Assembly (NCBI GenBank): GCA_963715985.1
Contig: CAVQSP010000009.1
Coordinates: forward strand, 96,001-160,000
Direction: 5' to 3'
Length of the DNA stretch: 64,000 nt
Source of the DNA: an uncultured Thermoleophilia bacterium
Lineage (GTDB): Bacteria; Actinomycetota; Thermoleophilia; UBA2241
The notes below the pieces were generated by a model, which was not told the origin of the DNA, ran no database searches, and saw nothing but the letters and a program-made list of their open reading frames with translations. The translations under genes and the position numbers were made by a program. Positions 45,390 through 62,888 of the stretch are shown piece by piece. Position 1 is the stretch's first letter. Each line of letters opens with the position of its first letter.

Positions 45390-45405
45390 GTGCAATGAAG
45401 CACAA
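45388..45405. promoter_or_regulatory. Rex-like operator
   Basis: cTGTGCAATGAAGCACAA fits the TGTG-N8-CACA geometry of Rex sites and overlaps the -10/TSS. Confidence 0.55.
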
Positions 45406-45488
45406 GCTCTGAAACTTCCCAGCGACACCGTTCAGAGGGCGACCGTTCGGGCGCCCGTTTGCGGCAGAAGGGCAGGTTCGTCAGCAGT

Positions 45489-46028
45489 ATGAGCGCACCT
45501 AACGGCACCCTTGTCTCCGAGATCCGCACGGCCACCGGCATCAACGCGGCCACCTGTTACCAGTGCGGCAAGTGCTCGGCCGGTTGTCCCATGGCGTCCG
45601 AGTCAGACCTGCGCCCGCACAACGTCATGCGTCTCGTCGTGCAGGACCGTCGCGAGCAGGCGCTCCACGACGAGTCCATCTGGCTCTGCCTCACCTGCGA
45701 GACGTGTTCCGCGCGCTGCCCCAACGCCTGCGACCCGGCGCGCGTCATCGACCAGCTACGGGAGATGAGCATCGAGGCCGGCGCCGCCGACATGCCGCGC
45801 ACCATCGGCGCCTTCCACAGAGCCTTCCTCGACCAGATCCGCAACAACGGCCGTCTCCACGAGTTCGGCATGGTCATGGAGTACAAGCTGCGCAGCGGCG
45901 AACTCATGAAGGACGCCGCCAGCGCGCCGGCCATGATCCAGCGCGGCAAGCTCAGCTTTCGCGCCGAGCGCATCGAGGGCATGTCCGAGATCAAACGCAT
46001 CTTCGCGATGTGCGGGGTGACCCCGTGA
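45489..46028 (+). CDS. hdrC: Heterodisulfide reductase subunit C
   Basis: CYQCGKCSAGCP, WLCLTCETCSARCP, GRLHE. Confidence 0.9.
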   Translation: MSAPNGTLVSEIRTATGINAATCYQCGKCSAGCPMASESDLRPHNVMRLVVQDRREQALHDESIWLCLTCETCSARCPNACDPARVIDQLREMSIEAGAADMPRTIGAFHRAFLDQIRNNGRLHEFGMVMEYKLRSGELMKDAASAPAMIQRGKLSFRAERIEGMSEIKRIFAMCGVTP

Positions 46029-47137
46029 ATGGCCTCCGTAGTCAAACTATCGAGCGGGGCACCGAAGGAGCACCTCTCCGCGCTGCAAGCGCCACGGTGC
46101 GCGCCGCCAACGACTACGCCTACTACCCCGGCTGCTCCCTGCACGGCACCTCGCGCGAGTTCGACGAAAGCCTGCGCGCCGTGGCCGCCGAACTGAGGGT
46201 GGGCCTCACCGAGGTCACGGACTGGTCCTGCTGCGGCGCCAGCAGCGGGCACACCACCGACCACCTCCTCGGCGTGGCGCTGCCCGCCCGCAACCTGGCG
46301 CTGGCCGAGTCTCAGGGCTTCTCCTCCGTGCTCGCGCCCTGCGCCGCCTGCTACAACCGCCTCTCCGCGGCGCGTCTGGCCGTCGCTGAGGAAGAAGGAC
46401 TGGCGGAGCGCATCCCCGACATCCTCGGGCGCCCCTTCGCCAACACGGTGGAGGTACACAACGCCGTCGAGCTCCTGCGCGACGCCGCCTCGGACATCGA
46501 GGAGAAGCTCGCCGCCGCCCTGACCACCAGGCCCAACCCCATGGAGGGCGTCAAGCTGGCCAGCTACTACGGCTGCCTGCTCGTCCGCCCCTTCGAGGTC
46601 TGCGGCTACGACGACCCGGAGCAGCCCACGTCCATGGACGACGTGGTGCGCGCCTGCGGCGCCGAGCCTGTGGACTGGGACATGAAGGTCGAGTGCTGCG
46701 GCGGCTCCTTCAGCGTCAGCCGTACCGCCTCGGTGCTTCGCCTCGGACGCTCCATCATCGAGAACGCCCGCGCCCACGGCGCCGAGGCCATCGTGGTGGC
46801 GTGCCCGCTGTGCCACTCCAACCTCGACCTGCGCCAGAAGGCGGCGGTCGACCGCGGCGCTGCGCCCATGCCCATCCTGTTCATCACGCAGGTCGCAGGC
46901 CTCGCGCTGCGGCTCTCGCCGGTGGAGCTCGGCCTCACCCGCCACTTCGTGGACACCGAGCCCTTCCTGGCCGATCTGCTCGCCCGCGCCAACGTGCGCG
47001 TGGAAGAGGAGAAGAAGCTGCAGGCCGAGGCGGCCGCCAAGGCGGCCGCCCGCGCCGAGAAGCAGAAGGTCGCCGCTGCCGCCGCCGGGACCGGCGTGCG
47101 CGTCGAGCGATGCCCCCGAGCCGGCGGAAGGTGGTGA
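46025..47137 (+). CDS. hdrB: Heterodisulfide reductase subunit B
   Basis: YYPGC, DWSCCG, PCAAC, YYGCLL.RP, ECCG, ACPLC. Confidence 0.9.
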   Translation: MNGLRSQTIERGTEGAPLRAASATVRAANDYAYYPGCSLHGTSREFDESLRAVAAELRVGLTEVTDWSCCGASSGHTTDHLLGVALPARNLALAESQGFSSVLAPCAACYNRLSAARLAVAEEEGLAERIPDILGRPFANTVEVHNAVELLRDAASDIEEKLAAALTTRPNPMEGVKLASYYGCLLVRPFEVCGYDDPEQPTSMDDVVRACGAEPVDWDMKVECCGGSFSVSRTASVLRLGRSIIENARAHGAEAIVVACPLCHSNLDLRQKAAVDRGAAPMPILFITQVAGLALRLSPVELGLTRHFVDTEPFLADLLARANVRVEEEKKLQAEAAAKAAARAEKQKVAAAAAGTGVRVERCPRAGGRW

Positions 47138-47143
47138 GGCTCA

Positions 47144-49171
47144 GTGAGCCGCATCGGCGTCTTCGTCTGTCACTGCGGCGAGAACATCGCCCGCACCGTC
47201 GACTGCGCCGCGGTCGCGGAGGCCCTCAAGGACCACCCCGGCGTGGCCCACGCCGAGGACTACAAGTACATGTGCTCGGACCCGGGCCAGGCCCTCGTCA
47301 AGAAGGCCATCGAGGAGAACCACCTCACCGGCGTCGTCATCGCCGCGTGCTCGCCGCACATGCATGAGAAGACCTTCCGCCGCGCCTGCGACCAGGCGGG
47401 GCTCAACAAGTTCATGTGCGAGATGGCCAACGTCCGCGAGCACTGCTCGTGGATCCACGAGGACCGTGGCGAAGCCACGGCCAAGGCCATCGACATCGGC
47501 CGCACCATCATCGAGAAGGTCAAGCACAACAAGCCGCTCGAGGTCATCAAGATCCCCGTCACCAAGCGCGCCATGGTCATCGGCGGCGGCATCGCCGGCA
47601 TCCAGGCGGCGCTGGACATCGCCGACGGCGGCCACGAGGTCATCATCGTGGAGAAGGAGGCGTCGATCGGCGGCCATATGAGCCAGCTGAGCGAGACCTT
47701 CCCCACCCTGGACTGCTCCCAGTGCATCCTCACCCCGCGCATGGTGGAGGCGTACCAGCACCCCAACATCAAGCTGTACACCTGGAGCGAGGTCGAGAAG
47801 GTCGACGGCTACATCGGCAACTTCGAGGTCACGGTGCGCAAGAAGGCGCGCAGCGTCAACGAGGACCTCTGCAACGGCTGCGGCGACTGCTTCGGGGTCT
47901 GCCCGTCCAAGAAGATCCCCAGCGAGTTCGAGGCCGGGCTGGGCAAGCGCACCGCCATCTACGTGCCCTTCCCGCAGGCCGTGCCCAACATCCCCGTGCT
48001 GGACCGCGAGAACTGCACCCTCTTCAAGGGCCGCCGCAAGGGCCTCAAGAAGGAGGCCTGCGGCAACTGCAAAGAGGCGTGCCTCAAAGGCGCCATCGAC
48101 TACGACACCGAGGACACCTTCGTGACCGAGCAGATCGGGGCCATCGTGGTCGCGACCGGCTACAAGCTCTACGACATCGGTCGCGACCAGCCCGAGGGCC
48201 TCAAGGGCTACGGCGAGTACGGGTACGGCGAGGTGCCGGACGTCATCGACGGCCTGCAGTTCGAGCGCCTGGCCTCGGCCAGCGGGCCGACGGCGGGCGC
48301 CATCCTCAGGCCGTCCGACGGCACGGAGCCCAAGACGGTGGTCTTCGTCCATTGCGTGGGCTCCCGCGACCCGGAGAAGGGCATGGAGTACTGCAGCAAG
48401 ATCTGCTGCATGTACAACGCCAAGCACGCCATGCTCTACAAGCACAAGGTGCACGACGGCCGCGCCGTGGCCTTCTACATGGACATCCGCGCCAACGGCA
48501 AGGGCTACGACGAGTTCAGTCGGCGCGCCATCGAGGAGGACGGCGCCGAGTACGTCCGCGGCCGCGTGAGCCGCATCTTCCGCGACGGCGACAAGGTCAA
48601 GGTGTGGGGCTACGACACCCTGGCCGGCGAGCAGGTCGTCATCGACGCCGACATGGTCGTGCTGGCCACCGCCATGCGCCCCAACGACGGCGTGCGCGAG
48701 CTCGCCCAGAAGCTCAGCGTGAGCGTCGACGCGCATGGCTTCATCAACGAGGCGCACCCCAAGCTGCGCCCCGTGGAGACCAACACCGCCGGGGTCTTCG
48801 TGGCCGGCGCCTGCCAGTCGCCGCGCGACATCCCGGACGCGGTGGCCATGGCGAGCGCCACCAGCGCCAAGGTGCTGGGCCTCTTCAGCGCCGACGAGCT
48901 CGAGCGCGAGCCCGCCGTGGCCGTCGTCAGCGAGCAGACCTGCATCGGTTGCATGCGCTGCGCCCTCGTGTGCCCCTACGGCGCCATCGAGCAGCGCGAC
49001 ATCTGCACCGTGGACGGCCAGGTGTGCGGCCACACCGCCTACGTGAACCCGGGCGTGTGTCAGGGCTGCGGCACCTGCGAGGCGGTGTGCCTGAGCAACA
49101 GCGTCGAGCTGCAGACGTTCACCGACGAGCAGGTCTACAGCGAGATCAACGCGCTCTGCGCGTGGGAGTGA
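47144..49171 (+). CDS. hdrA: Heterodisulfide reductase subunit A
   Basis: RIGVFVCHCG, AACSP, ANVREHCSW, GGGIAG, TFPTLDCSQCILTP, CVGSRD, YCSKICC, two ferredoxin domains. Confidence 0.95.
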   Translation: MSRIGVFVCHCGENIARTVDCAAVAEALKDHPGVAHAEDYKYMCSDPGQALVKKAIEENHLTGVVIAACSPHMHEKTFRRACDQAGLNKFMCEMANVREHCSWIHEDRGEATAKAIDIGRTIIEKVKHNKPLEVIKIPVTKRAMVIGGGIAGIQAALDIADGGHEVIIVEKEASIGGHMSQLSETFPTLDCSQCILTPRMVEAYQHPNIKLYTWSEVEKVDGYIGNFEVTVRKKARSVNEDLCNGCGDCFGVCPSKKIPSEFEAGLGKRTAIYVPFPQAVPNIPVLDRENCTLFKGRRKGLKKEACGNCKEACLKGAIDYDTEDTFVTEQIGAIVVATGYKLYDIGRDQPEGLKGYGEYGYGEVPDVIDGLQFERLASASGPTAGAILRPSDGTEPKTVVFVHCVGSRDPEKGMEYCSKICCMYNAKHAMLYKHKVHDGRAVAFYMDIRANGKGYDEFSRRAIEEDGAEYVRGRVSRIFRDGDKVKVWGYDTLAGEQVVIDADMVVLATAMRPNDGVRELAQKLSVSVDAHGFINEAHPKLRPVETNTAGVFVAGACQSPRDIPDAVAMASATSAKVLGLFSADELEREPAVAVVSEQTCIGCMRCALVCPYGAIEQRDICTVDGQVCGHTAYVNPGVCQGCGTCEAVCLSNSVELQTFTDEQVYSEINALCAWE

Positions 49172-49178
49172 GAGAACC

Positions 49179-49679
49179 GTGAGCGACACACACGCCGACT
49201 TCGAGCCCCGCATCACGGCCTTCGTCTGCAACTGGTGCACCTACACCGGCGCCGACCTGGCCGGCACGAGCCGCCTGCACATGGCGAGCAACGTGCGCCT
49301 CATCCGCCTGCCCTGCACCGGACGCATCGACCCCCTCTTCATCATCAAGGCGTTCGAGCGCGGCGCCGACGGCGTCATCGTCAGCGGCTGCCATCCCGCC
49401 GACTGCCACTACACCTCGGGCAACTACCACGCGCGGCGCCGCTTCGCGGTGTTCCACGACTTCCTCGAGTTCATCGGCGTCGACCCCCGCCGCATCACCT
49501 TCAGCTGGGTGTCCGCCAGCGAGGGCGCCAAGTGGCGCGACGTGGTGGACGAGACCGTCGCCAACGTCGTGGCATTGGGCCCGTACGACGAGTACAGGGC
49601 GCTGGCGCCGGAGGCCGTCGAGCCGTGGCCCGGCGCTTTGCAGCCGGAGCCGGCCGTGGCCGCAGGGGAGGCCTCATGA
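49179..49679 (+). CDS. flxD: MvhD-like [2Fe-2S] subunit (FlxD)
   Basis: FVCNWCTY.GADLAG, PCTGRID, GCHPADCHY..GN, WVSASEG. Confidence 0.88.
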   Translation: MSDTHADFEPRITAFVCNWCTYTGADLAGTSRLHMASNVRLIRLPCTGRIDPLFIIKAFERGADGVIVSGCHPADCHYTSGNYHARRRFAVFHDFLEFIGVDPRRITFSWVSASEGAKWRDVVDETVANVVALGPYDEYRALAPEAVEPWPGALQPEPAVAAGEAS

Positions 49680-50608
49680 GCGACGCGACCACCGCCACCA
49701 TGGCCGAGGCCCCCGTGTACACCGGCGTGGACGACCTGCGCCGCATCGCCCGCGAGCTGCTCGAGGCCGGCGACGTGCGCGTCATCATCGGCTGGGAGCA
49801 CGCACGCCGCGGCGCGCGGCCGGTGTTCATCGCCGACCCGGCCGAGGCCGACAAGCTCATCTTCGACACGCGCTGCGTGCACAACCTCGTCACCTACCTC
49901 AACCCGCGCCGCGACCACGTCACGGAGCTGGGCAAGATCGGGCTCGTCGTCAAGGGCTGCGACGTGAAGGCGGTCGCGGGCCTGCTGCGCGAGCAGCAGA
50001 TCGACCGCGACCACGTCGTGCTCATCGGGGTCAAGTGCGGCGGCGTGCTCGAGGAGAACGAGCTGCCCGCCGCCGTCGCCCTCTCGCCCGAGAACGTGGC
50101 GCCGCGGTGCTACGGCTGCGACAACCGCGAGCCCACCCTGGTCGATCACCTGGTGGGCGAGTCGCAGCCCGAGCCGCCGCGCCCGGTCATGACCATCGAC
50201 GAGCGCGTCGCCATCCTCGACGAGAAGCCCCTCGAGGAGCGCTGGGCCTTCTGGACCGAGCAGTTCAGCAAGTGCGTGCGCTGCTACGCCTGCCGCCAGG
50301 TGTGCCCCCTCTGCATCTGTGAGCGCTGCATCGTCGAGAAGACGCAGCCGCAGTGGATAGAGCCGTCGGCGCACCCCCGCGGCAACATGAGCTGGAACAT
50401 CACCCGCGCCGTCCACCTGGCCGGCCGCTGCGTCGATTGCGGCGAGTGCGAGCGCTTCTGCCCGGTGGGCATCCCGCTCAGTCTCGTCAACCGCAAGCTG
50501 CAGCAGATCGTCCACGACCGCTACGACTACGTCGTGGCCGAGGACCCGGAGAAGCCGGCGCCCATCGGCGACTATCGTCTCGACGACCAGCAGGAGTTCA
50601 TCAAGTGA
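49676..50608 (+). CDS. flxC: Flx Fe-S subunit C
   Basis: KGCD, KCVRCYACRQVCPLC.C, HLAGRCVDCGECERFCP; position within hdrCBA-flxDCBA. Confidence 0.75.
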   Translation: MSDATTATMAEAPVYTGVDDLRRIARELLEAGDVRVIIGWEHARRGARPVFIADPAEADKLIFDTRCVHNLVTYLNPRRDHVTELGKIGLVVKGCDVKAVAGLLREQQIDRDHVVLIGVKCGGVLEENELPAAVALSPENVAPRCYGCDNREPTLVDHLVGESQPEPPRPVMTIDERVAILDEKPLEERWAFWTEQFSKCVRCYACRQVCPLCICERCIVEKTQPQWIEPSAHPRGNMSWNITRAVHLAGRCVDCGECERFCPVGIPLSLVNRKLQQIVHDRYDYVVAEDPEKPAPIGDYRLDDQQEFIK

Positions 50609-51735
50609 GCGATCGCTACTTCATCAGCACCGAAGACCTGCGTGGCCTCGCCGGCGACCTGATCGCCGCAGGCACCGAAGTGATCGCGCCCGTCGCCGTC
50701 GACATCTGCCAGTCGCCGGCCGCCTTCGCCGCCTCCGCGTGCAGGCTGCCGGGCACGACGGCCGTCGACGTCGACTACCGCATGCTCGGCGACGCGGCCG
50801 AGCTGGACCTCAGCCGCGGCCTCCCGGAGCTCTCGCTCAAGGGCTACTTCCTGCCCGAGCACGAGGCGCTCTGCCGCTGGAGGCAGAAGGGCACCACCGT
50901 CGAGGTCCAGGAGGTGCCCACCGAGTTCGCTCCGCGGGTCGTGCTCGCGGCCAAGCCCTGCGACGCCGCCGCCCTGGTCGTGGTCGACCAGGTCATGAAC
51001 TGGGACTACGAGGACGAGCTGTGGAACGGCCGCCGCGCGGCCACCACCGTCATCAACCTCTCCTGCCCGGTCATCGACGACAGCTGTTTCTGCACCGCGG
51101 TCGGCGCCGCTCCCGACGACACCAAGGGCGCCGACGGCCTGCTCACGCAAGTCGAGGGCGGCTACGTCCTCGAGGTCACCACCGACAAGGGGCGCGCCCT
51201 GGCCGAGGCCCACAAGGCGCGCCTCAGCACGGACGTCCCCGCCGACACCCTCGGGCGGCAGGCCGACGACGAGCGCTCCGCGGCTCGCGCTCGCGTGGCC
51301 GCCAACCTCGAGATCGACGCCGGCTCCGTGCGCGACTGGATCGCCACCCACTTCGAAGATCCGCTGCTGGCCATGCTCGCCGTCCGCTGCAACGGCTGCG
51401 GCGCCTGCACCAGCGTGTGCCCCACCTGCCACTGCTTCGACATCGTCGATGAAGAAGAGGGCGTCGGCCGCGGCACCCGGCGTCGCTGCTGGGACACCTG
51501 CCAGGCGCCCACGTTCACGCTGCACGCCAGCGGCCACAACCCGCGCGACAACCAGCACGTGCGGTACCGGCAGCGCATCAACCACAAGTTCTCCATCTAC
51601 CCGCTCAAGTTCGGCGAGGTCCTCTGCACCGGCTGCGGGCGCTGCACGCGCGTGTGCCACGCCGGCCAGGACCTCGTGGAGATCCTTGCGCACATCGACA
51701 TCGCGGCGCGACGGCCCGCGGAGGCGGCATCATGA
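50605..51735 (+). CDS. flxB: Flx Fe-S subunit B (AsrA/sulfhydrogenase beta-like)
   Basis: KPCD, CFC, CNGCGACTSVCPTCHCF, R.WDTC, HKF, CTGCGRC. Confidence 0.8.
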   Translation: MSDRYFISTEDLRGLAGDLIAAGTEVIAPVAVDICQSPAAFAASACRLPGTTAVDVDYRMLGDAAELDLSRGLPELSLKGYFLPEHEALCRWRQKGTTVEVQEVPTEFAPRVVLAAKPCDAAALVVVDQVMNWDYEDELWNGRRAATTVINLSCPVIDDSCFCTAVGAAPDDTKGADGLLTQVEGGYVLEVTTDKGRALAEAHKARLSTDVPADTLGRQADDERSAARARVAANLEIDAGSVRDWIATHFEDPLLAMLAVRCNGCGACTSVCPTCHCFDIVDEEEGVGRGTRRRCWDTCQAPTFTLHASGHNPRDNQHVRYRQRINHKFSIYPLKFGEVLCTGCGRCTRVCHAGQDLVEILAHIDIAARRPAEAAS

Positions 51736-52563
51736 ACATCTACCAGCCGCAGCTCGCCACCGTCACCGAGCTGATCGACGAGACTCCCGACACGCGCACC
51801 CTGCGCCTGGAGTTCCAGGACGAGGCGCTGCGCTCGTCCTTCGAGTTCAAGGCCGGCCAGTTCGGCGAGTACAGCATCTTCGGCGCCGGCGAGAGTACGT
51901 TCTGCATCGCCAGCTCACCCACGCGCGAGGGCTACATCGAGTGCAGCTTCAAGGCCGTGGGCAAGGTCACCTCGGCCCTGCGCGAGGCCAATATCGGCGA
52001 CATCGTGGGCTTCCGCGGCCCGTACGGCAACTGGTTCCCGGTGGACGACTGGAAGGGCAAGGACGTGGTCTTCGTGGCCGGCGGCATCGGCCTCGCCGCC
52101 GGTGCGCTGCGTCATCTGGAACGTGCTCGATCGCCGCGACGAGTTCGGCGACGTCACCATCGTCTACGGCGCGCGCAGCGTGAGTGACCTCGTGTACAAG
52201 CGCGAGCTGGAGGAGTGGGGCTCGCGCACCGACGTCAAGATGGTCACCACCGTCGACCCCGGCGGCCAGACCGAGGACTGGACCGGCGATGTGGGCTACG
52301 TCACGCCGGTCGTCGAGAAGACGGCGCCCAAGGCCGACAACGCGGTCGCCGTGCTCTGCGGCCCGCCCATCGTGGTCAAGCTCACGCTGCCGGTGCTGGA
52401 GCAGCTCGGCTTCGCCGAGGACGCCATCTTCACCACGCTCGAGAACCGCATGAAGTGCGGGATCGGCAAGTGCGGCCGCTGCAACATCGGGCCCGTGTAC
52501 GTGTGCAAGGACGGGCCGGTCTTCACCGCCGCACAGATGAAAGAGCTGCCGCCGGAGTTCTGA
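51732..52563 (+). CDS. flxA: Flx FAD/NAD(P)H-binding subunit A (AsrB-like; frameshift near 52100)
   Basis: GQF, RGPYGN, AGGIGLA, YGAR, CGPP, LENRMKCGIGKCGRC...VCKDGPVF. Confidence 0.85.
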
Positions 52564-56835: not shown

Positions 56836-58275
56836 TCAGTCGGCCGGTACGATCGCGTTCAGGCGCTCGGTCAGCTCCTCCGGAGCGCCGGCGCCTCGTG
56901 CGTCGCGAGCAGCTCGAGCGCCTTGCGGCGGGCCTTCTCCGTGGCGTCCAGCCCGCCGCCGTCTATCCAGCGGTCGTAGCTGGCGCGGTTGAGCAGCTGG
57001 GCGCGCCACTGGCTGCTGCGCAGGTGGCGCCTGGTGTGCCGCTGGCCGAGGTAGTCGCCGCCGGGGCCGACGGCCTTGAGCACGTCCACGGCCAGCGTCT
57101 CGTCCGAGACCTCGATCTCGGCGAGCAGGCGCCGGTCGCGGGCGATGAACTCGGCCGCCAGCACGACCTCGGCGAGCGAATCCGGAGAGGCCGAAGTCCA
57201 TGTAGCCGACGTCGTGGTTGAGGTTGGCGCCCAGCTGCATGGAGAGCTTGATGAGCTCGTCGGCCTCCATGCCGGCCTGGGCGTCCACGACCTGCGCGTC
57301 GGTGTGGCCGCTGAACCCCCAGTTGGGGATGTCCAGCCACTTGGCCATCTCCACCTCGCAGGCATAGGCGCGCGTGAACTCGGGCGAGTTGTACGACGAC
57401 TGCGACGTCGCCATGTCCAGCGTGTTGGGGCCCTGCCCGATGACGAACGGGCGCTCCGGGGACCCGGAGCTGGTGCATGACGAGGCCGAACAGCGCCTCG
57501 GCCACGCCGAGCGTGATCTGGCCGGCGGTGGTGATCGGGGCGGTGCCGCCGGCGACCGGCGACGGGCAGTAGGTGGACGGGACGCCGTGGTCGGCGCAGA
57601 ACAGCAGCTTGTCCACCGTCTCGAACGGGTGCTTGAGCGGCGTGACGGGCTGGTTGTACATGACGAAGTAGGGCTTCTCGCGCAGCGCCTCGGCGCCGCC
57701 GCGGACCTCGCAGGCCATCCGCCACATGGGCTCCACGGTCTCCACGCCGCCGGCCGTCATCACGAGCGGCTTGGTGGTGGCCGGGATCATGGCGCGGAAC
57801 TGCTTGCGGGTAGGCCTCCCGCGCGTCCATGCCGTCGGGGTAGGCGCCCGACATGACGAAGTCGATGTCGGGCAGGGCGTCGCAGAGACGCGCCGCCTCG
57901 GTGACGTCTTCGAGCTTGCCGAGGCGGCGTTCGCCGGTCTCCAGGTCGTGCAGGTGCATCACGTCGGAGCCGTTGCCGAAGTACGAGCCTCGGCCGCCGA
58001 GGTCCATGGCCGGCTCGCCGTCGCGGTCGTAGACGACGAAGCTCGACGGCACCGACTCGCGCGCCTGCTCGACAAGGGCGGCGCGGGACGTGGACGAGGC
58101 CGTCGCCGTCCTTCGTGCAGCCGCCCTCGAGCATGACCTGCTCGCCCTCCTCGTGGAGGACGACCATGCCGATGTCGGCGAGGATGCCGAGGGCCGTCTC
58201 GTAGATGCGCCGCTTCTGCTCTTCGCTGAGGAAGCTGACGCGGCCGGCGCCGATCTCCTTGCTGCTGTCTGACAT
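56836..58275 (-). CDS. Non-pyrrolysine MttB-superfamily protein (frameshifted)
   Basis: [45 protein letters not shown] (His at the Pyl site), [13 protein letters not shown]. Confidence 0.85.
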
Positions 58276-58291
58276 GGTCGCTCCTCGGGAT

Positions 58292-58350
58292 GGTGGTGCA
58301 AAGGCCAGGCGCCGCCGCCACGGACGGCGCGCCTGGCCGAACACTACACC
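58292..58350 (-). other. Long intergenic stem-loop between Pyl-mttB and the next mttB paralog
   Basis: GGCCAGGCGC/GCGCCTGGCC stem (58303-58312 with 58329-58338), extended by GGTG/CACC; short T run on the minus strand. Confidence 0.5.
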
Positions 58351-58360
58351 GTCCGGCGGC

Positions 58361-59836
58361 CTAGTGCACGTCCAATTCGCGTTCTGCGGCATCGATAATC
58401 GACTTAAGTTCTGCCGCGACCGCGTCCGGGCAGCGGCTCCGGCCGGTGCGTCTCGAGGATGCGCCGGGCCTCGGCGAGGGCGCGGTCGTAGAGCGTCGTC
58501 GACCCGTCGGCGGCCCACTCCTCGCGGACCCGGCGGTCGATGAGACCTGCTCCGCGACTGGTCGCGCATGCCTTTGTACGTGTCGTCGTGGGCGAGGAAG
58601 TCGTTGAACGGCCCGATCTCGGCGATGACGTCCACGGCGAGCGTCTCGTCGCTCACCGGGATGCCCGGCACGCAGTACTTGACCATGCGCGCGAACTCCG
58701 CGTCCATGACCAGCTGCGCGTAGTCGATGGTGACGCCCGATTCCAGCATCCCCAGCCCGTAGATCAGGTTGGCCCCTGCCAACGCCGGCAGCAGGCTGGT
58801 GATCGTCTTCTCGTGTCCGGATTGGGCGTCCGACACTTTGGAGTCGCCCTACGCACCGGCGACCCAGCTGGGCAGCAGGTAGTAGCGCGCCAGGCAGGCC
58901 ACGCCGGCGCCGATCATGCCGCACTCGGGGCTGCCCACCGAGGCGCTGGCGAAGCGCAGGTCCAGAGCCGTGGTGGACGAGCCGTAGATGACCGGGCGTG
59001 CCGCGCTCCGTGAGCTGCGCCAGCGTGATGCCGCTGAGCACCTCGGCGTTGTGGCCGACCAGCGTGCCGGCCAGGCTCACCGGCGACGACCCGCCGGCCA
59101 TGGCCATGGAGAGCACGTTGACGGGGATGCCGGCGCGGGCGCCCTCGATGATGATGCGGCAGACGTCGGCGACCAGCTTGAGCGGGCTCACCGGGCAGGT
59201 GAGGAACGAGAGGATGGGGCGGCGGCGGAGCTCGTCGTGCCCGCCGGCGATGGCCGCCGCCATGTCGATCATCTTGCGCGCGCAGAAGCCCGTGAGCGGG
59301 CCGATGGTGGCGTGCTTCGTGGTGTTGCTGAAGATGGCCTCGGCGTTGTGCAGCGCCGCCGTGTCCTGCGGCGACGTCGTGGGCGCCCAGCGGCCGCTCC
59401 ACCACGTCGATCTCGGGCAGCGCGTCGATGATCCTGCGTGCAGTCGGCGACGTCCTGCTTGCGCGACTCGTGCAGCTCGCCGGTGTACGGGTCGACGACC
59501 TGGATGCCCTCGCCGAAGTTGGTGAAGCCGACGCGGCCGTCCTCAAGGACGACGTCCCGGGCCGGGTCGCGCCCGCACATCACGACCTTGGGCGGCGCCG
59601 AGCGGATCGCGTCCTCCACGAGGTGCGCCGGGATGCGCACCACGCCGCGTCTCGCGATCGACCTCGGCGCCGGCCGCCGGCGAAGATCTCCTGCGCCTCC
59701 GCGTCCTCCACGAAGACACCGGTGCGCGCCAGTACCTCCAGCGTCGCGAGATGGATCTCGTGAGCTCGTCGTCGGTGAACACCTCGAGCCTGAAGCCGCC
59801 GCTCTTGCGCGCTCCTGCGCGCGGGTTACGGATCAT
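58361..59836 (-). CDS. mttB: Trimethylamine:corrinoid methyltransferase, pyrrolysine-containing (in-frame TAG at 58849-58851; several frameshifts)
   Basis: [93 protein letters not shown], matching the Pyl context of methanogen MttB. Confidence 0.92.
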
Positions 59837-59839
59837 CGG

Positions 59840-61236
59840 TCAGCCTCCCGCCGTGCGTTCCTTGAACTTCTCGACGCTGTTGATGGGCACGTCCAGCACG
59901 CGCGCGATGTTGAACTTGGCCTCGATCTGGTTGGCCTGCCAGGGCTGGCTGATGGCGTAGCTGTGGACGCGCCCGAACCCGTGCTCGTTGCGCACGTCGG
60001 TCATCACGACCGGGTCCGAGAGGTCGAACGGCGTGACGCCGAGCTTGTCGGCCACGTACTGCTTGGCTTCCGTGAGGCGCATGCCCCGAGTCATCTGCAT
60101 ACGGGCAACCAGGTCTCCGCCTGCCCGAATACCGCCGATGCTCGCCGCCTGCGCGTGCGCGTTGTGCATGCCGTGCGGGTCGCCCGAGCCGACCTACAAG
60201 CCGTCCACGTGCAGCAGCTCGACGAACGACTTGGCCGCCCGGCAGACGGCGTCCGAGGGCAGGTGCACGAACATCGGCACGCCGCCGACGCCCATGCCGG
60301 CGTTGGGGTGCACGGGGATCTCGGCGACCTCCATGCAGGGCTTGATGAGGGCGATGGCGCGGGCCATGTTCCAGGCCAGCGACTTGCCGGTGTTGACGTT
60401 GACGACGGGCCCGAACATGGTGGCGCCGGCCTTCTGCGCGAGCAGCAGCTGGTCCTTGGGCCACAGCCCGGCGAGGCGCACGCCCTCCCACTCGAGCTGG
60501 CCGTGCATGCCGAGCACGAACTCGCCGGCCATGCCCAGCTGCACGCCCATGTCGGGGTACTTCTCGCGGATGATCTTCGTGGCGCGCAGCGCGGCCAGGA
60601 ACTCGGGGTCGCCGGAGGCGCCGGTGGTGTCCCAGTCGATGGCGTCGGCGCCGGCCTCCCACTGCGAGTCGGCGAGGTTGACCATGTCGACGACGGCCAT
60701 CTCGACGGCCTCTTCGGCGGCCGCCCGCGCCTCGGCGATCTTGCCCAGCGGCAAGCAGCTCGTTCCAGTTGTCGCAGGGCCCGTCGGGCTTGGAGTAGAG
60801 GCCCAGGTTGGGCATCACGCCGTACTGCAGCGGGGCGATGGTGCAGAGCTGCGCGTCGTGCATGTACTGGGCCTCGTAGGCGAGGATGGTGCGCACCACC
60901 TTGAGCGAGTAGTCGCCGACGCAGAGCTCGAGCAGGTCGGCGCCCATCCACTGCTCGTAGGACTGCAGGTCCTGGATGCGCGTGGCGTGCGTCTTCATGC
61001 CCCGTGCCGTCGCAGCTGAGGACGATCTCCTCGCCGACGTCGACGCCGATGAAGCGCAGCGGCGAGGCGTAGATGTCGAGCAGGTGGTCGATCTCGTCGT
61101 CGGTGAGCGGCGCCACCTTGGCGCGCTTCACGGCCGCCGCCACGCCCGCCTCGAGATCGGCGCGGATCTCGCTGCGCGTCAGCCGCGCAAAGGTGCCGTC
61201 GCCCATGCGGGTCGGCACCCTGGCCTCGTTCGTCAC
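59840..61236 (-). CDS. mtbB: Dimethylamine:corrinoid methyltransferase, pyrrolysine-containing (in-frame TAG at 60194-60196; frameshifts near 61000 and 60755)
   Basis: RMGDG, MPNLGLY..PDGP, DTTGASGD, GMAGEFVLGMHG, GMGVGGVPM, VDGL-TAG-VGSGDP.GM..AH...GIRAGGDLVARMQ...EAK.YVA.KLGV, AK.NI...L...INS. Confidence 0.93.
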
Positions 61237-61279
61237 GTCGTCCTCCCCGTTCAGGCGACCGGCGCGGTCGGGCCATCGA

Positions 61280-61299
61280 CTAATCGACCGGTCAATTAG
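61280..61299. promoter_or_regulatory. 20-bp near-perfect palindrome, probably an operator, between divergent methyltransferase units
   Basis: CTAATCGACCGGTCAATTAG (one mismatched pair), AT-rich relative to its context. Confidence 0.65.
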
Positions 61300-61430
61300 C
61301 TGATAGACAGTCCACACCAGCGCACGCGGCGATGTCAAGAGCGGCCGGGCGCTGGCGTCGCACGGGTATCATCGCGCCGTGCGCGCAGTGCGGCGGCAGA
61401 AGCGAAGACGGAGACGGAAGAAGGCGGCGG

Positions 61431-62888
61431 ATGAGAGCGCACACGACCTGGCTGAGCGAGGCCGAGAAGAGCAGGATCGTCGACGCAGGCGATGGAGCCT
61501 GCTCGGGAACGTGGGCATGCGCTTCGCCGGCTCGAGCGTGCTGCCCCTGCTGGCGGAGCGCGGGGCGGACGTGGACGAGGCCACCGGGCTCGTCCGTCTT
61601 CCCCGCGAGCTCGTGGAGTGGGCGGTCGGCCAGTGCCCCCGCCGGATCGTCATGGCCGGCCTCGACGGAGGCGGACGACGTGCGTGCTGGACGAGGGCGA
61701 GCCCTTCCACTTCGCGCCCAGCGGCTGCGTCGCGAAGACGCTCGACTTCCGCAGCGGGCGAGCGCCGCGCCAGCACGCTGCAGGACGTGCGCGAGTGCAC
61801 GGCCCTCAACGACGAGCTGCCCGAGCTCGACATCATGTGGACGCAGGTGAGCGCATCCGACGTGCCGCTGGAGGCACGCGAGCTCACCGAGTACTTCACG
61901 CTGCTCACCGAGACGCGCAAGCACGTGACCTTCGTCGACTGCCCTACGGAGGTCGACGCGGTCGTGCGGCTCTGCGAGGCCCTGGCGGGCGACCTGGAGC
62001 GCTTCCGCGCCCGCCCGCGCATCTCCACCGTGGTCACCGCGGCGTCGCCGCTGCAGGTGGACGGCGGCATCCTCGACGTGCACGTGGCGCTGGCGCGGCA
62101 CGGCGTGCCCGTCAAGATCTACTCGATGGCCATCGCCGGGGCGACGGCGCCGGTGACGCTGGCCGGCACGGTGGTGCAGGGTCTCGCCGAGTTCCTCGGC
62201 GTCGCCACGGCGCTGCAGGTGGCGGCGCCCGGGCGCGCGCCTCGTCTTCTGCTTCGGCTCGGGCGTGCTCGACATGCGCCAGACGACGTTCGCGCTGGGC
62301 TGCGTGGAGGCGCGCTGATGGCGGCCATGGCCACCGAGGTCGGCCACCACGTCGGCGTGCCGACCCTCAGCCCCGGCTTCTCGACCGACGCCCGGCACGT
62401 CGCCCTGCAGGACGGCTACGAGAAGGCGATGAAGGCGGCGACAGTGTGCGCCGCCAACCCGGACGTCGTCACCGGCTGGGGGCTCGTGGACTCGCACAAC
62501 ACGATGTCGCTGCCGCAGTCGGTCATCGACAACGAGATGGCCGGCATGCTGCAGGCGGCTGAACCGGCCGGTCGAGGTCTCCGACGCCACGCTCGCCGCC
62601 GAGGCCTTCGACGCCGTCGGGCCGGGCGGCGGGTTCCTCGGCCGCAAGGAGACGGCCAAGCGCATCCGCGCCGGCGAGCACTACCTGCCGACCCTCTCGA
62701 GCCGGCTCTCCTACGAGAAGTGGGTGGAGCAGGGCGCGACGGAGTACGACGAGGCCTGCGCGCGCGTGGAGGCGCTGCTGGCCGCGCACGCCTCAAGGAG
62801 CCGTACATCGACGGCGCGCTGCTGGACGAGATCGCGGCCATCTGCCGCGTGGACGACGACGCCGTGCGCCGAGCACGGCGCGAAGTGA
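61431..62888 (+). CDS. Non-pyrrolysine MttB-superfamily protein (frameshifted)
   Basis: HFAPSGC, TAASPL, AIAGATAPVTLAGT, LDMR, SPGFSTDAR (Ser at the Pyl site), GYEKA, VIDNE, VGPGGGFL. Confidence 0.82.

Follow-up and report, generated by a model that had tools for sequence, protein, structure and literature searches.

A very probable pyrrolysine codon in an mtbB-family gene of a Thermoleophilia-like actinobacterium, and the rare leucine codon that precedes it

The described systems with which the gene analysed here is best compared are the MtbB methyltransferases of methanogenic archaea, for which the work of Paul, Ferguson and Krzycki in 2000 is reportedly the reference, and their bacterial counterparts. 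Six MtbB genes with pyrrolysine (Pyl) were described in the delta1 symbiont of Olavius algarvensis in 2007 (PMC1976440), a dimethylamine methyltransferase carrying Pyl in frame was reported from marine Deltaproteobacteria in 2021 (PMC8318568), and in 2023 Pyl-encoding mttB and mtbB were reported as expressed by Actinobacteriota metagenome-assembled genomes (MAGs) from the Stordalen Mire peatland (PMC10805028). Here we examine an mtbB gene within a 64,000-nucleotide stretch of contig CAVQSP010000009.1 (assembly GCA_963715985.1), hereafter the window. An earlier sequence-only reading had noticed an in-frame amber codon at the Pyl site of this gene, at 60194-60196, and had regarded a bacterial MtbB as less commonly described than MttB. 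As a mark of novelty, that rarity does not survive the publications of 2007, 2021 and 2023 (PMC1976440, PMC8318568, PMC10805028); bacterial Pyl-mtbB has been known since 2007 and from Actinobacteriota since 2023, and the find is correct, not new. Our conclusion is that the TAG is very probably a Pyl codon in a working mtbB-family gene of a Thermoleophilia (Actinomycetota) bacterium, with the frameshifts that break the gene being assembly errors.

As assembled, mtbB spans three frames (61236..~61003, ~61002..~60755 and 60754..59840). Its parts are given below, C9 being the contig that carries it.

61236..59840, minus strand: mtbB, with a GTG start at 61236..61234 and a TGA stop at 59842..59840, by direct reading of the sequence

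61241..61246, minus strand: GGAGGA, a Shine-Dalgarno-like motif four bases 5' of the mtbB GTG start, likewise read from the sequence

61003..61236, minus strand: mtbB piece 1 by frame translation, VTNEARVPTRMGDG...LSCDGTG, matching TIGR02368 positions 7-74 with 27 bits (C9:157009-157212)

60755..61002, minus strand: mtbB piece 2 by frame translation, MKTHATRIQDLQ...DNWNELL, matching TIGR02368 positions 88-171 with 55.3 bits

60197..60754, minus strand: mtbB piece 3, ...ELLHVDGL, up to the residue before Pyl, with TTG as its last codon

60194..60196, minus strand: the proposed Pyl TAG, codon 347 of the 464 counted without two private insertions

59840..60193, minus strand: C-terminal part of mtbB after Pyl, VGSGDPHG...KFKERTAGG, ending in TGA 59842..59840

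The read-through product of 59840-60754 matches the NCBIfam profile TIGR02368 (dimeth_PyL) over positions 174-465 of 466 with an expectation value (E) of 2.3e-92. In a whole-genome profile search the three pieces score 309.4, 55.3 and 27 bits and jointly extend from position 7 to 465 of the 466, with no single piece of the window attaining the curated cut-off of 369.1. We nevertheless judge the gene to be a full-length member of the family, because the pieces cover the profile and an intact orthologue, L014, scores 550.6 bits against Pfam PF09505; this orthologue shares 92% DNA identity with the window gene and 97% protein identity over 303 columns. A search of the PDB by sequence returned no solved MtbB structure, giving chance matches only (E >= 0.07). 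By its sequence, then, the gene is a member of the MtbB, or [dimethylamine--corrinoid protein] Co-methyltransferase, family. The context of the codon in the third frame is ...ELLHVDGL-TAG-VGSGDPHGMH.... Where the sequence-only reading had the minus-strand open reading frame (ORF) 60194..60754 end in ...VDGL-TAG, both its coordinates and its flanking residues are correct (the translation being ...HVDGL-TAG), and the same frame does run on through VGSGDPHG into the ORF that begins at ATG 60169 and on to TGA 59842..59840. The profile match of the read-through also upholds its assignment of the segment after the TAG to the MtbB C-terminus.

The TAG recurs throughout the family. The genome itself carries 8 full-length mtbB genes, each with one TAG inside its match, and 3 frameshifted copies including that of the window. 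All 8 intact paralogs read DG(L/F)-TAG-(V/A)GxGD, and although their identity to the window copy is only 51-62%, the Pyl column does not vary in a protein alignment that joins them to it (9 rows). When one genome per species was scanned, at least 525 relatives came up among at least 583 matched stretches, and in all 80 of the loci from other genomes that were kept for analysis the Pyl column is TAG; a sense codon at this place in close homologues, which the earlier reading had said would tell against its claim, occurs in 0 of the 80. A library of 1.84 billion representative proteins gave 585 matches at E <= 0.001, and among the 150 of these that were listed 22 stop exactly at query residue 346, the last before the TAG, and 9 start at residues 349-359, the pattern expected from gene callers that halt at a Pyl codon. 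The claim that the TAG falls in the MtbB Pyl column in a methanogen-like context likewise holds, in that the archaeal fragments P0165 and P0166 (Ca. Methanomethylophilaceae MtbB) end in ...KVDGV, one column before the TAG. As to the letters themselves, an independent public run (X1, record 2) includes a contig of 90 bases that spans 60128-60217 with no difference from the window, and among 40 of the 194 rows of differing letters against four public metagenome runs none lies on 60194-60196.

About 17% of the genes in this genome end in TAG, and the codon could on that account be taken for an ordinary stop, or for a base-call error, with 60194..60754 and 59840..60169 being two genes or one broken gene. 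Such an explanation is hardly credible in the face of TAG in the same column of 8/8 paralogs and 80/80 other loci, of a coding signal that, by guanine-plus-cytosine (GC)-frame segmentation, keeps the same frame on both sides of the TAG, of 117 C-terminal residues after it that are conserved family sequence, and of an RNA element, PYLIS_2, that begins on the TAG itself. This element and its counterpart in the neighbouring mttB gene are the following.

60097..60196, minus strand: Rfam RF02509, PYLIS_2 (mtbB pyrrolysine insertion sequence), matched over model positions 1-100 of 100 with 60.1 bits, the gathering score being 36

58752..58851, minus strand: Rfam RF02510, PYLIS_3 (mttB pyrrolysine insertion sequence), matched with 73.4 bits, the gathering score being 38

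Consensus structures for such elements were proposed by Have et al. in 2013 (PMC3639795). Here, for both Rfam families, the 100 bases from the TAG onward fit the full model above its gathering score, and position 1 of the PYLIS_2 model is the T of the TAG. A PYLIS_2 match is present at the TAG in all 14 other mtbB loci tested, of which 8 are the own paralogs and 6 come from other phyla, and the 3' hairpin of the element shows covariation across 93 sequences. The window copy departs from the Rfam model in its first hairpin, several of the model's pairs being non-standard there. A hairpin 66-98 bases 3' of the TAG was at one point considered as a new element and was dropped, being the 3' hairpin of PYLIS_2. 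The loop of that hairpin, within an invariant GGAGA, holds a glycine codon, GGA at window 60116-60118 (+26 after the TAG), which is found in 94 of 94 mtbB genes with high GC content at third codon positions (GC3), against 6.8% of the glycine codons there.

Some library proteins have other residues in the Pyl column. P0007, a 463-residue protein from JGI/IMG that forms a singleton cluster, is an MtbB homologue of full length (39% identity to L014) that has tryptophan in this column and changed residues at neighbouring positions that are otherwise invariant; it may represent a non-Pyl branch of the MtbB family. The fragments P0053, P0138 and P0029 have Q, S and L, respectively. Separately, the 444 in-frame TAGs returned by genome-wide GC-frame segmentation were not used as a Pyl proteome, as they are mostly noise from merged genes and wrong frames.

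The genome also encodes the means of decoding the codon: a tRNA-Pyl(CUA), PylSn and PylSc, pylB, pylC and pylD are all present, and we judge it to be Pyl-decoding. The genes lie on a second contig of the bin, C13, which additionally holds one Pyl-mtbB and one Pyl-mttB.

C13:555126-555198: tRNA-Pyl with anticodon CUA, found by ARAGORN

C13, strand opposite to the other pyl genes listed: pylSc, 316 bits, cut-off 178

C13: pylSn, 124.6 bits, cut-off 51

C13: pylC, 317.9 bits, cut-off 248.3

C13: pylD, 199.5 bits, cut-off 150.05

C13:551949-552972: pylB, split by a frameshift into pieces of 303.8 and 125.8 bits that both fall short of the cut-off of 348.2

A tRNA-Sec is also encoded in the genome. 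All 22 contigs of the 4.35-Mb bin have a GC content of 0.69-0.71.

In the sequence as given, the mtbB frame is interrupted, apart from the UAG, by two +1 frameshifts upstream of it, which the sequence-only reading had not mentioned for this gene; for the first of them GC-frame segmentation places a frame change at 60999/61000.

61000..61003, minus strand: frameshift 1, an extra G in a GGGG run; a gap in 19/19 orthologues, and the contigs of all 4 public runs are one letter short at 61000-61004

60752..60754, minus strand: frameshift 2, an extra base in CTTG, placed by two alignments as T 60754 or G 60752; a gap in 19/19 and 10/10 orthologues

The 19 orthologues compared are 86-93% identical to the window gene at the DNA level and colinear with it over 1395 nucleotides except for these two one-base insertions; when the two insertion columns are set aside, 464 codons remain, whose only stop triplets are the TGA at the end and, at codon 347, the Pyl TAG. 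Against 10 orthologous loci, window 57689-62132 has 18 private one-base insertions, mostly of C or G, which disrupt mtbB and three MttB-family genes, and 0 private deletions; its 31 private substitutions in 3058 gap-free columns compare with 6-74 in ten other genomes. In this interval, then, the errors are indels and not substitutions, as the sequence-only reading had argued. The corrected gene differs from L014 at 78 codons synonymously and at 21 non-synonymously. Because the damage consists of insertions only, the level of substitution is normal and the gene bears the mark of purifying selection, we read the frameshifts as assembly errors. Elsewhere in the genome rpoB is intact and pylB is split into two frames, and a split in a gene that is required for Pyl synthesis fits assembly errors rather than lost function. 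It is therefore highly likely that both frameshifts are consensus errors of the assembly and that the real gene is intact.

Several points weigh against an intact, Pyl-decoded gene. The contigs of all 4 public metagenome runs are one letter short at 60752-60756 as well, but they are short, many derive from paralogs or relatives at 88-95% identity, and they are no proof that the insertions are errors. Likewise, the ~835 stop-less frame switches that GC-frame segmentation counts genome-wide (1.9 per 10 kb) come from an estimator of our own that is uncalibrated on a clean genome. The bin is 88.8% complete and 7.3% contaminated, and binning and composition are what links C9 with the pyl genes of C13. 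No corrinoid protein gene adjoins the window mtbB, the nearest on the contig being at C9:169968-170186, ~10 kb beyond the window end. Finally, the genome shows no avoidance of TAG as a stop, with 408 of its 2398 stops estimated to be TAG, and since it is common in that role read-through must be controlled somehow.

The same breaks could also be those of a pseudogene, in which the TAG would be a true Pyl codon by descent, the frameshifts would be real and the neighbouring mttB genes would be decaying too. Frame switches are indeed densest on the contig here, with 9 in the 10-kb bin of window 54-64 kb against the mean of 1.9, the three neighbouring MttB genes are all broken, and 8 intact paralogs could render the window copy dispensable. 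Decay would not, however, readily produce 18 one-base insertions among 18 private indels with no deletion, nor leave the private substitution count normal, with no premature stop arising by substitution, and the differences from the orthologue mostly synonymous (78 versus 21); nor would it explain why the indispensable pylB is broken in the same way. We consider this explanation quite improbable, and take the gene in what follows to be intact.

The PYLIS_2 model of Rfam begins at the UAG and hence does not include a feature that is conserved directly 5' of it. Of 101 MtbB Pyl sites in a codon alignment, 85 have leucine before Pyl, encoded by TTG in 82 of these, and 15 more have tyrosine (TAC). 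The leucine in this position is TTG at 21/21 MttB sites (16/16 and 5/5) and at 2/2 MtmB sites, and thus at 105 of 108 Pyl sites across the three families, although the sequences are related and the counts are not independent events; the window has its TTG at 60197-60199. Genome-wide, TTG accounts for 3.1% of 106,275 leucine codons, and in eight other leucine-dominated columns of the same MtbB alignment for 0-8%. Where a TAG stop is preceded by leucine as the last codon, TTG is used in 3 of 50 cases, such stops having CTG or CTC instead, and in three mtbB paralogs of the genome whose final stop is TAG, the leucine before that stop is CTG. Neighbouring synonymous sites are well mixed, with the glycine at -2 being GGC in 49 and GGG in 41. 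Over 115 conserved columns of 94 high-GC3 genes, a rare codon dominates in two only, the TTG at -1 and the GGA glycine at +26. The sites with TTG include 6/6 loci from other phyla with 44-54% GC. Avoidance of CTAG is ruled out as the cause, since CTG-TAG contains no CTAG either.

These counts lead us to suggest, tentatively and as an idea that is on balance doubtful, that in Pyl-using bacteria the P-site codon helps to set the meaning of UAG, with a rare UUG leucine codon, read by tRNA-Leu(CAA), marking Pyl sites from its position 5' of the UAG. If the P-site tRNA influenced how Pyl-tRNA competes with release factor 1, this would be in keeping with earlier E. coli studies of 5' context effects. 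The rule of a UUG at -1 may be new: no mention of a UUG context before the Pyl UAG was found in the literature searched, and a ribosome profiling study of M. acetivorans from 2026 raises local codon context, in the part of its text that was accessible, merely as a possibility (PMC13663744). A question posed in 2007 was by what means Pyl codons are distinguished from stops in bacteria where UAG is a widely used stop (PMC1976440), and the UUG-UAG context, if functional, would provide a testable answer.

A quick IQ-TREE phylogeny of 96 rows, in which sampling is biased to relatives of the window copy, two archaeal rows are named and the outgroup branch is long, places the window copy in a 33-row orthogroup (support 100) within an 81-row clade labelled Actinomycetota (support 99). 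Five further own paralogs also fall in the latter clade, in separate orthogroups that other MAGs share, and the clade itself lies within an 87-row bacterial clade (support 98) together with sequences from Desulfobacterota, Dehalococcoidales and Emergencia; the own paralogs L003 and L004 and the archaeal rows fall outside the 87-row clade. Because each paralog has its own orthogroup shared with other MAGs, the mtbB paralogs are, as judged from this tree, old and vertically kept. The sequence-only reading had proposed a phylogeny as a check for transfer from archaea or Firmicutes; in the 96-row tree, which gives no direction of transfer, there is no sign of a recent one from either, and the orthogroup is conserved across Thermoleophilia MAGs. 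The closest orthologues, at 94-96% protein identity, are labelled as Thermoleophilia or Actinomycetota MAGs, and by these nearest relatives the host would be a Thermoleophilia-like actinobacterium. Public runs with 20-38% of the window's words are labelled as wetland, soil or sediment metagenomes.

Three related loci, L016, L053 and L062, are titled Alphaproteobacteria or delta proteobacterium. Of these, L016 and L053 have a GC content of 68-70% and their mtbB genes nest in Thermoleophilia orthogroups, L016 being 93% DNA-identical to the window gene, which suggests that both are mislabelled bins.

The neighbour of mtbB on its 3' side belongs to a second methyltransferase family.

58361..59836, minus strand: MttB-family methyltransferase, the next gene downstream of mtbB, matched by PF06253 in pieces, with several frameshifts and its own Pyl TAG at 58849-58851

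In L014 this downstream mttB is intact (299 bits). One strand of that locus carries, in order, a divergent gene of the MttB family and one for an NAD-binding dehydrogenase; the other carries an AsnC/Lrp regulator gene, followed by mtbB (Pyl), an mttB-like gene with Pyl and a further mttB-like gene. Except for AsnC, all of these are present in the window, where ~195 bases lie between the two divergent starts (61237-61430). Of 31 related loci searched, 14 have an AsnC/Lrp gene in the space that separates mtbB from the divergent MttB gene (L014:1906-2421 in the orthologue), and its best match in the own genome, at C4:43404-43865, is 69% identical. Within the window, 45399-52184 contains ORFs whose translations, judged by eye, resemble HdrA, MvhD and iron-sulfur (Fe-S)/flavin adenine dinucleotide (FAD) oxidoreductase subunits of the electron-bifurcation type.

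Beyond this locus, the genome has ~11 mtbB loci, 89 matches to PF06253 (MTTB), 10 of which the motif marks as true Pyl sites, 7 MtmB loci (2 with a TAG), 21 B12-binding_2 (corrinoid-protein) hits, URO-D/MtaA/MtbA-like genes beside some of the corrinoid genes, and a CdhC/AcsB match. For a bin of 4.35 Mb this repertoire of methyltransferases is very large. With such a complement, the UAG of mtbB would be decoded by Pyl-tRNA(CUA) in competition with release factor 1, giving a predicted full-length enzyme of 464 residues in which Pyl would activate the methylamine for movement of its methyl group to a corrinoid protein encoded elsewhere. MtaA/MtbA-like methyltransferases might then hand the methyl group to a one-carbon (C1) carrier, from which, as the CdhC/AcsB hit hints, it could feed a Wood-Ljungdahl-type pathway.

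An intact, Pyl-dependent gene need not act on dimethylamine, and this orthogroup might use another methylated amine, the ~11 paralogs having split substrates between them. In its favour, the genome has as many as eleven MtbB loci, with 51-62% identity to the window copy, and these form separate orthogroups that are each retained by many Thermoleophilia MAGs, a pattern suggestive of long-standing roles that do not overlap; substrate diversification is, moreover, known in the MttB superfamily, where it is stated for non-Pyl MttB (PMC10805028). All copies have nonetheless kept the Pyl-flanking motif DG(L/Y)-O-xGxGD and 80 invariant columns, and we regard a different amine as unlikely. Taking the gene as a Pyl-dependent member of the dimethylamine family, the genome carries a large gene set for methylated amines, with ~11 MtbB loci, 10 Pyl-MttB sites, 2 Pyl-MtmB and dozens of non-Pyl MttB, which bears on the question of who consumes methylamines, substrates of methanogens, in wetlands and soils. 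For annotation the lesson is that such genes are split at the TAG and, here, also by insertion errors.

Compared with the MtbB of methanogenic archaea (TIGR02368, PF09505), the window gene belongs to the same family, has the same in-frame UAG position and has DG-x-O-xGxGD in common with it; the archaeal P0165 and P0166 (MBR6203772.1 and MBO4348260.1) are 42% identical to L014 over the N-terminal 346 residues. It differs in that its host is a bacterium of 70% GC with PylS split into pylSn and pylSc, and in that the residue before Pyl is leucine or tyrosine in its relatives whereas it is valine in the archaeal proteins. An N-terminal insertion of ~11 residues found in the archaeal sequences and in the own paralogs L003 and L004 is absent from the clade of the window copy.

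The literature searched yielded nothing relevant that joins pyrrolysine and Thermoleophilia. With the delta1 symbiont and the marine Deltaproteobacteria the window genome shares, as those genomes are described in the accessible text (PMC1976440, PMC8318568), a bacterial host, several Pyl-mtbB and Pyl-mttB genes per genome, a split pylS and a tRNA-Sec alongside the tRNA-Pyl. It belongs to a different phylum from these and has ~11 MtbB where the delta1 symbiont is reported to have 6 (PMC1976440), and the Desulfobacterota sequences fall outside the 81-row Actinomycetota clade of the tree. The Stordalen Mire study gives these genes one sentence in its accessible part, with no copy numbers, pyl cluster or codon context (PMC10805028). 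Its MAGs and the window have phylum, habitat type and gene families in common (PMC10805028), and the MAG bog_752 is among the related loci of the present analysis (L065 and L091).

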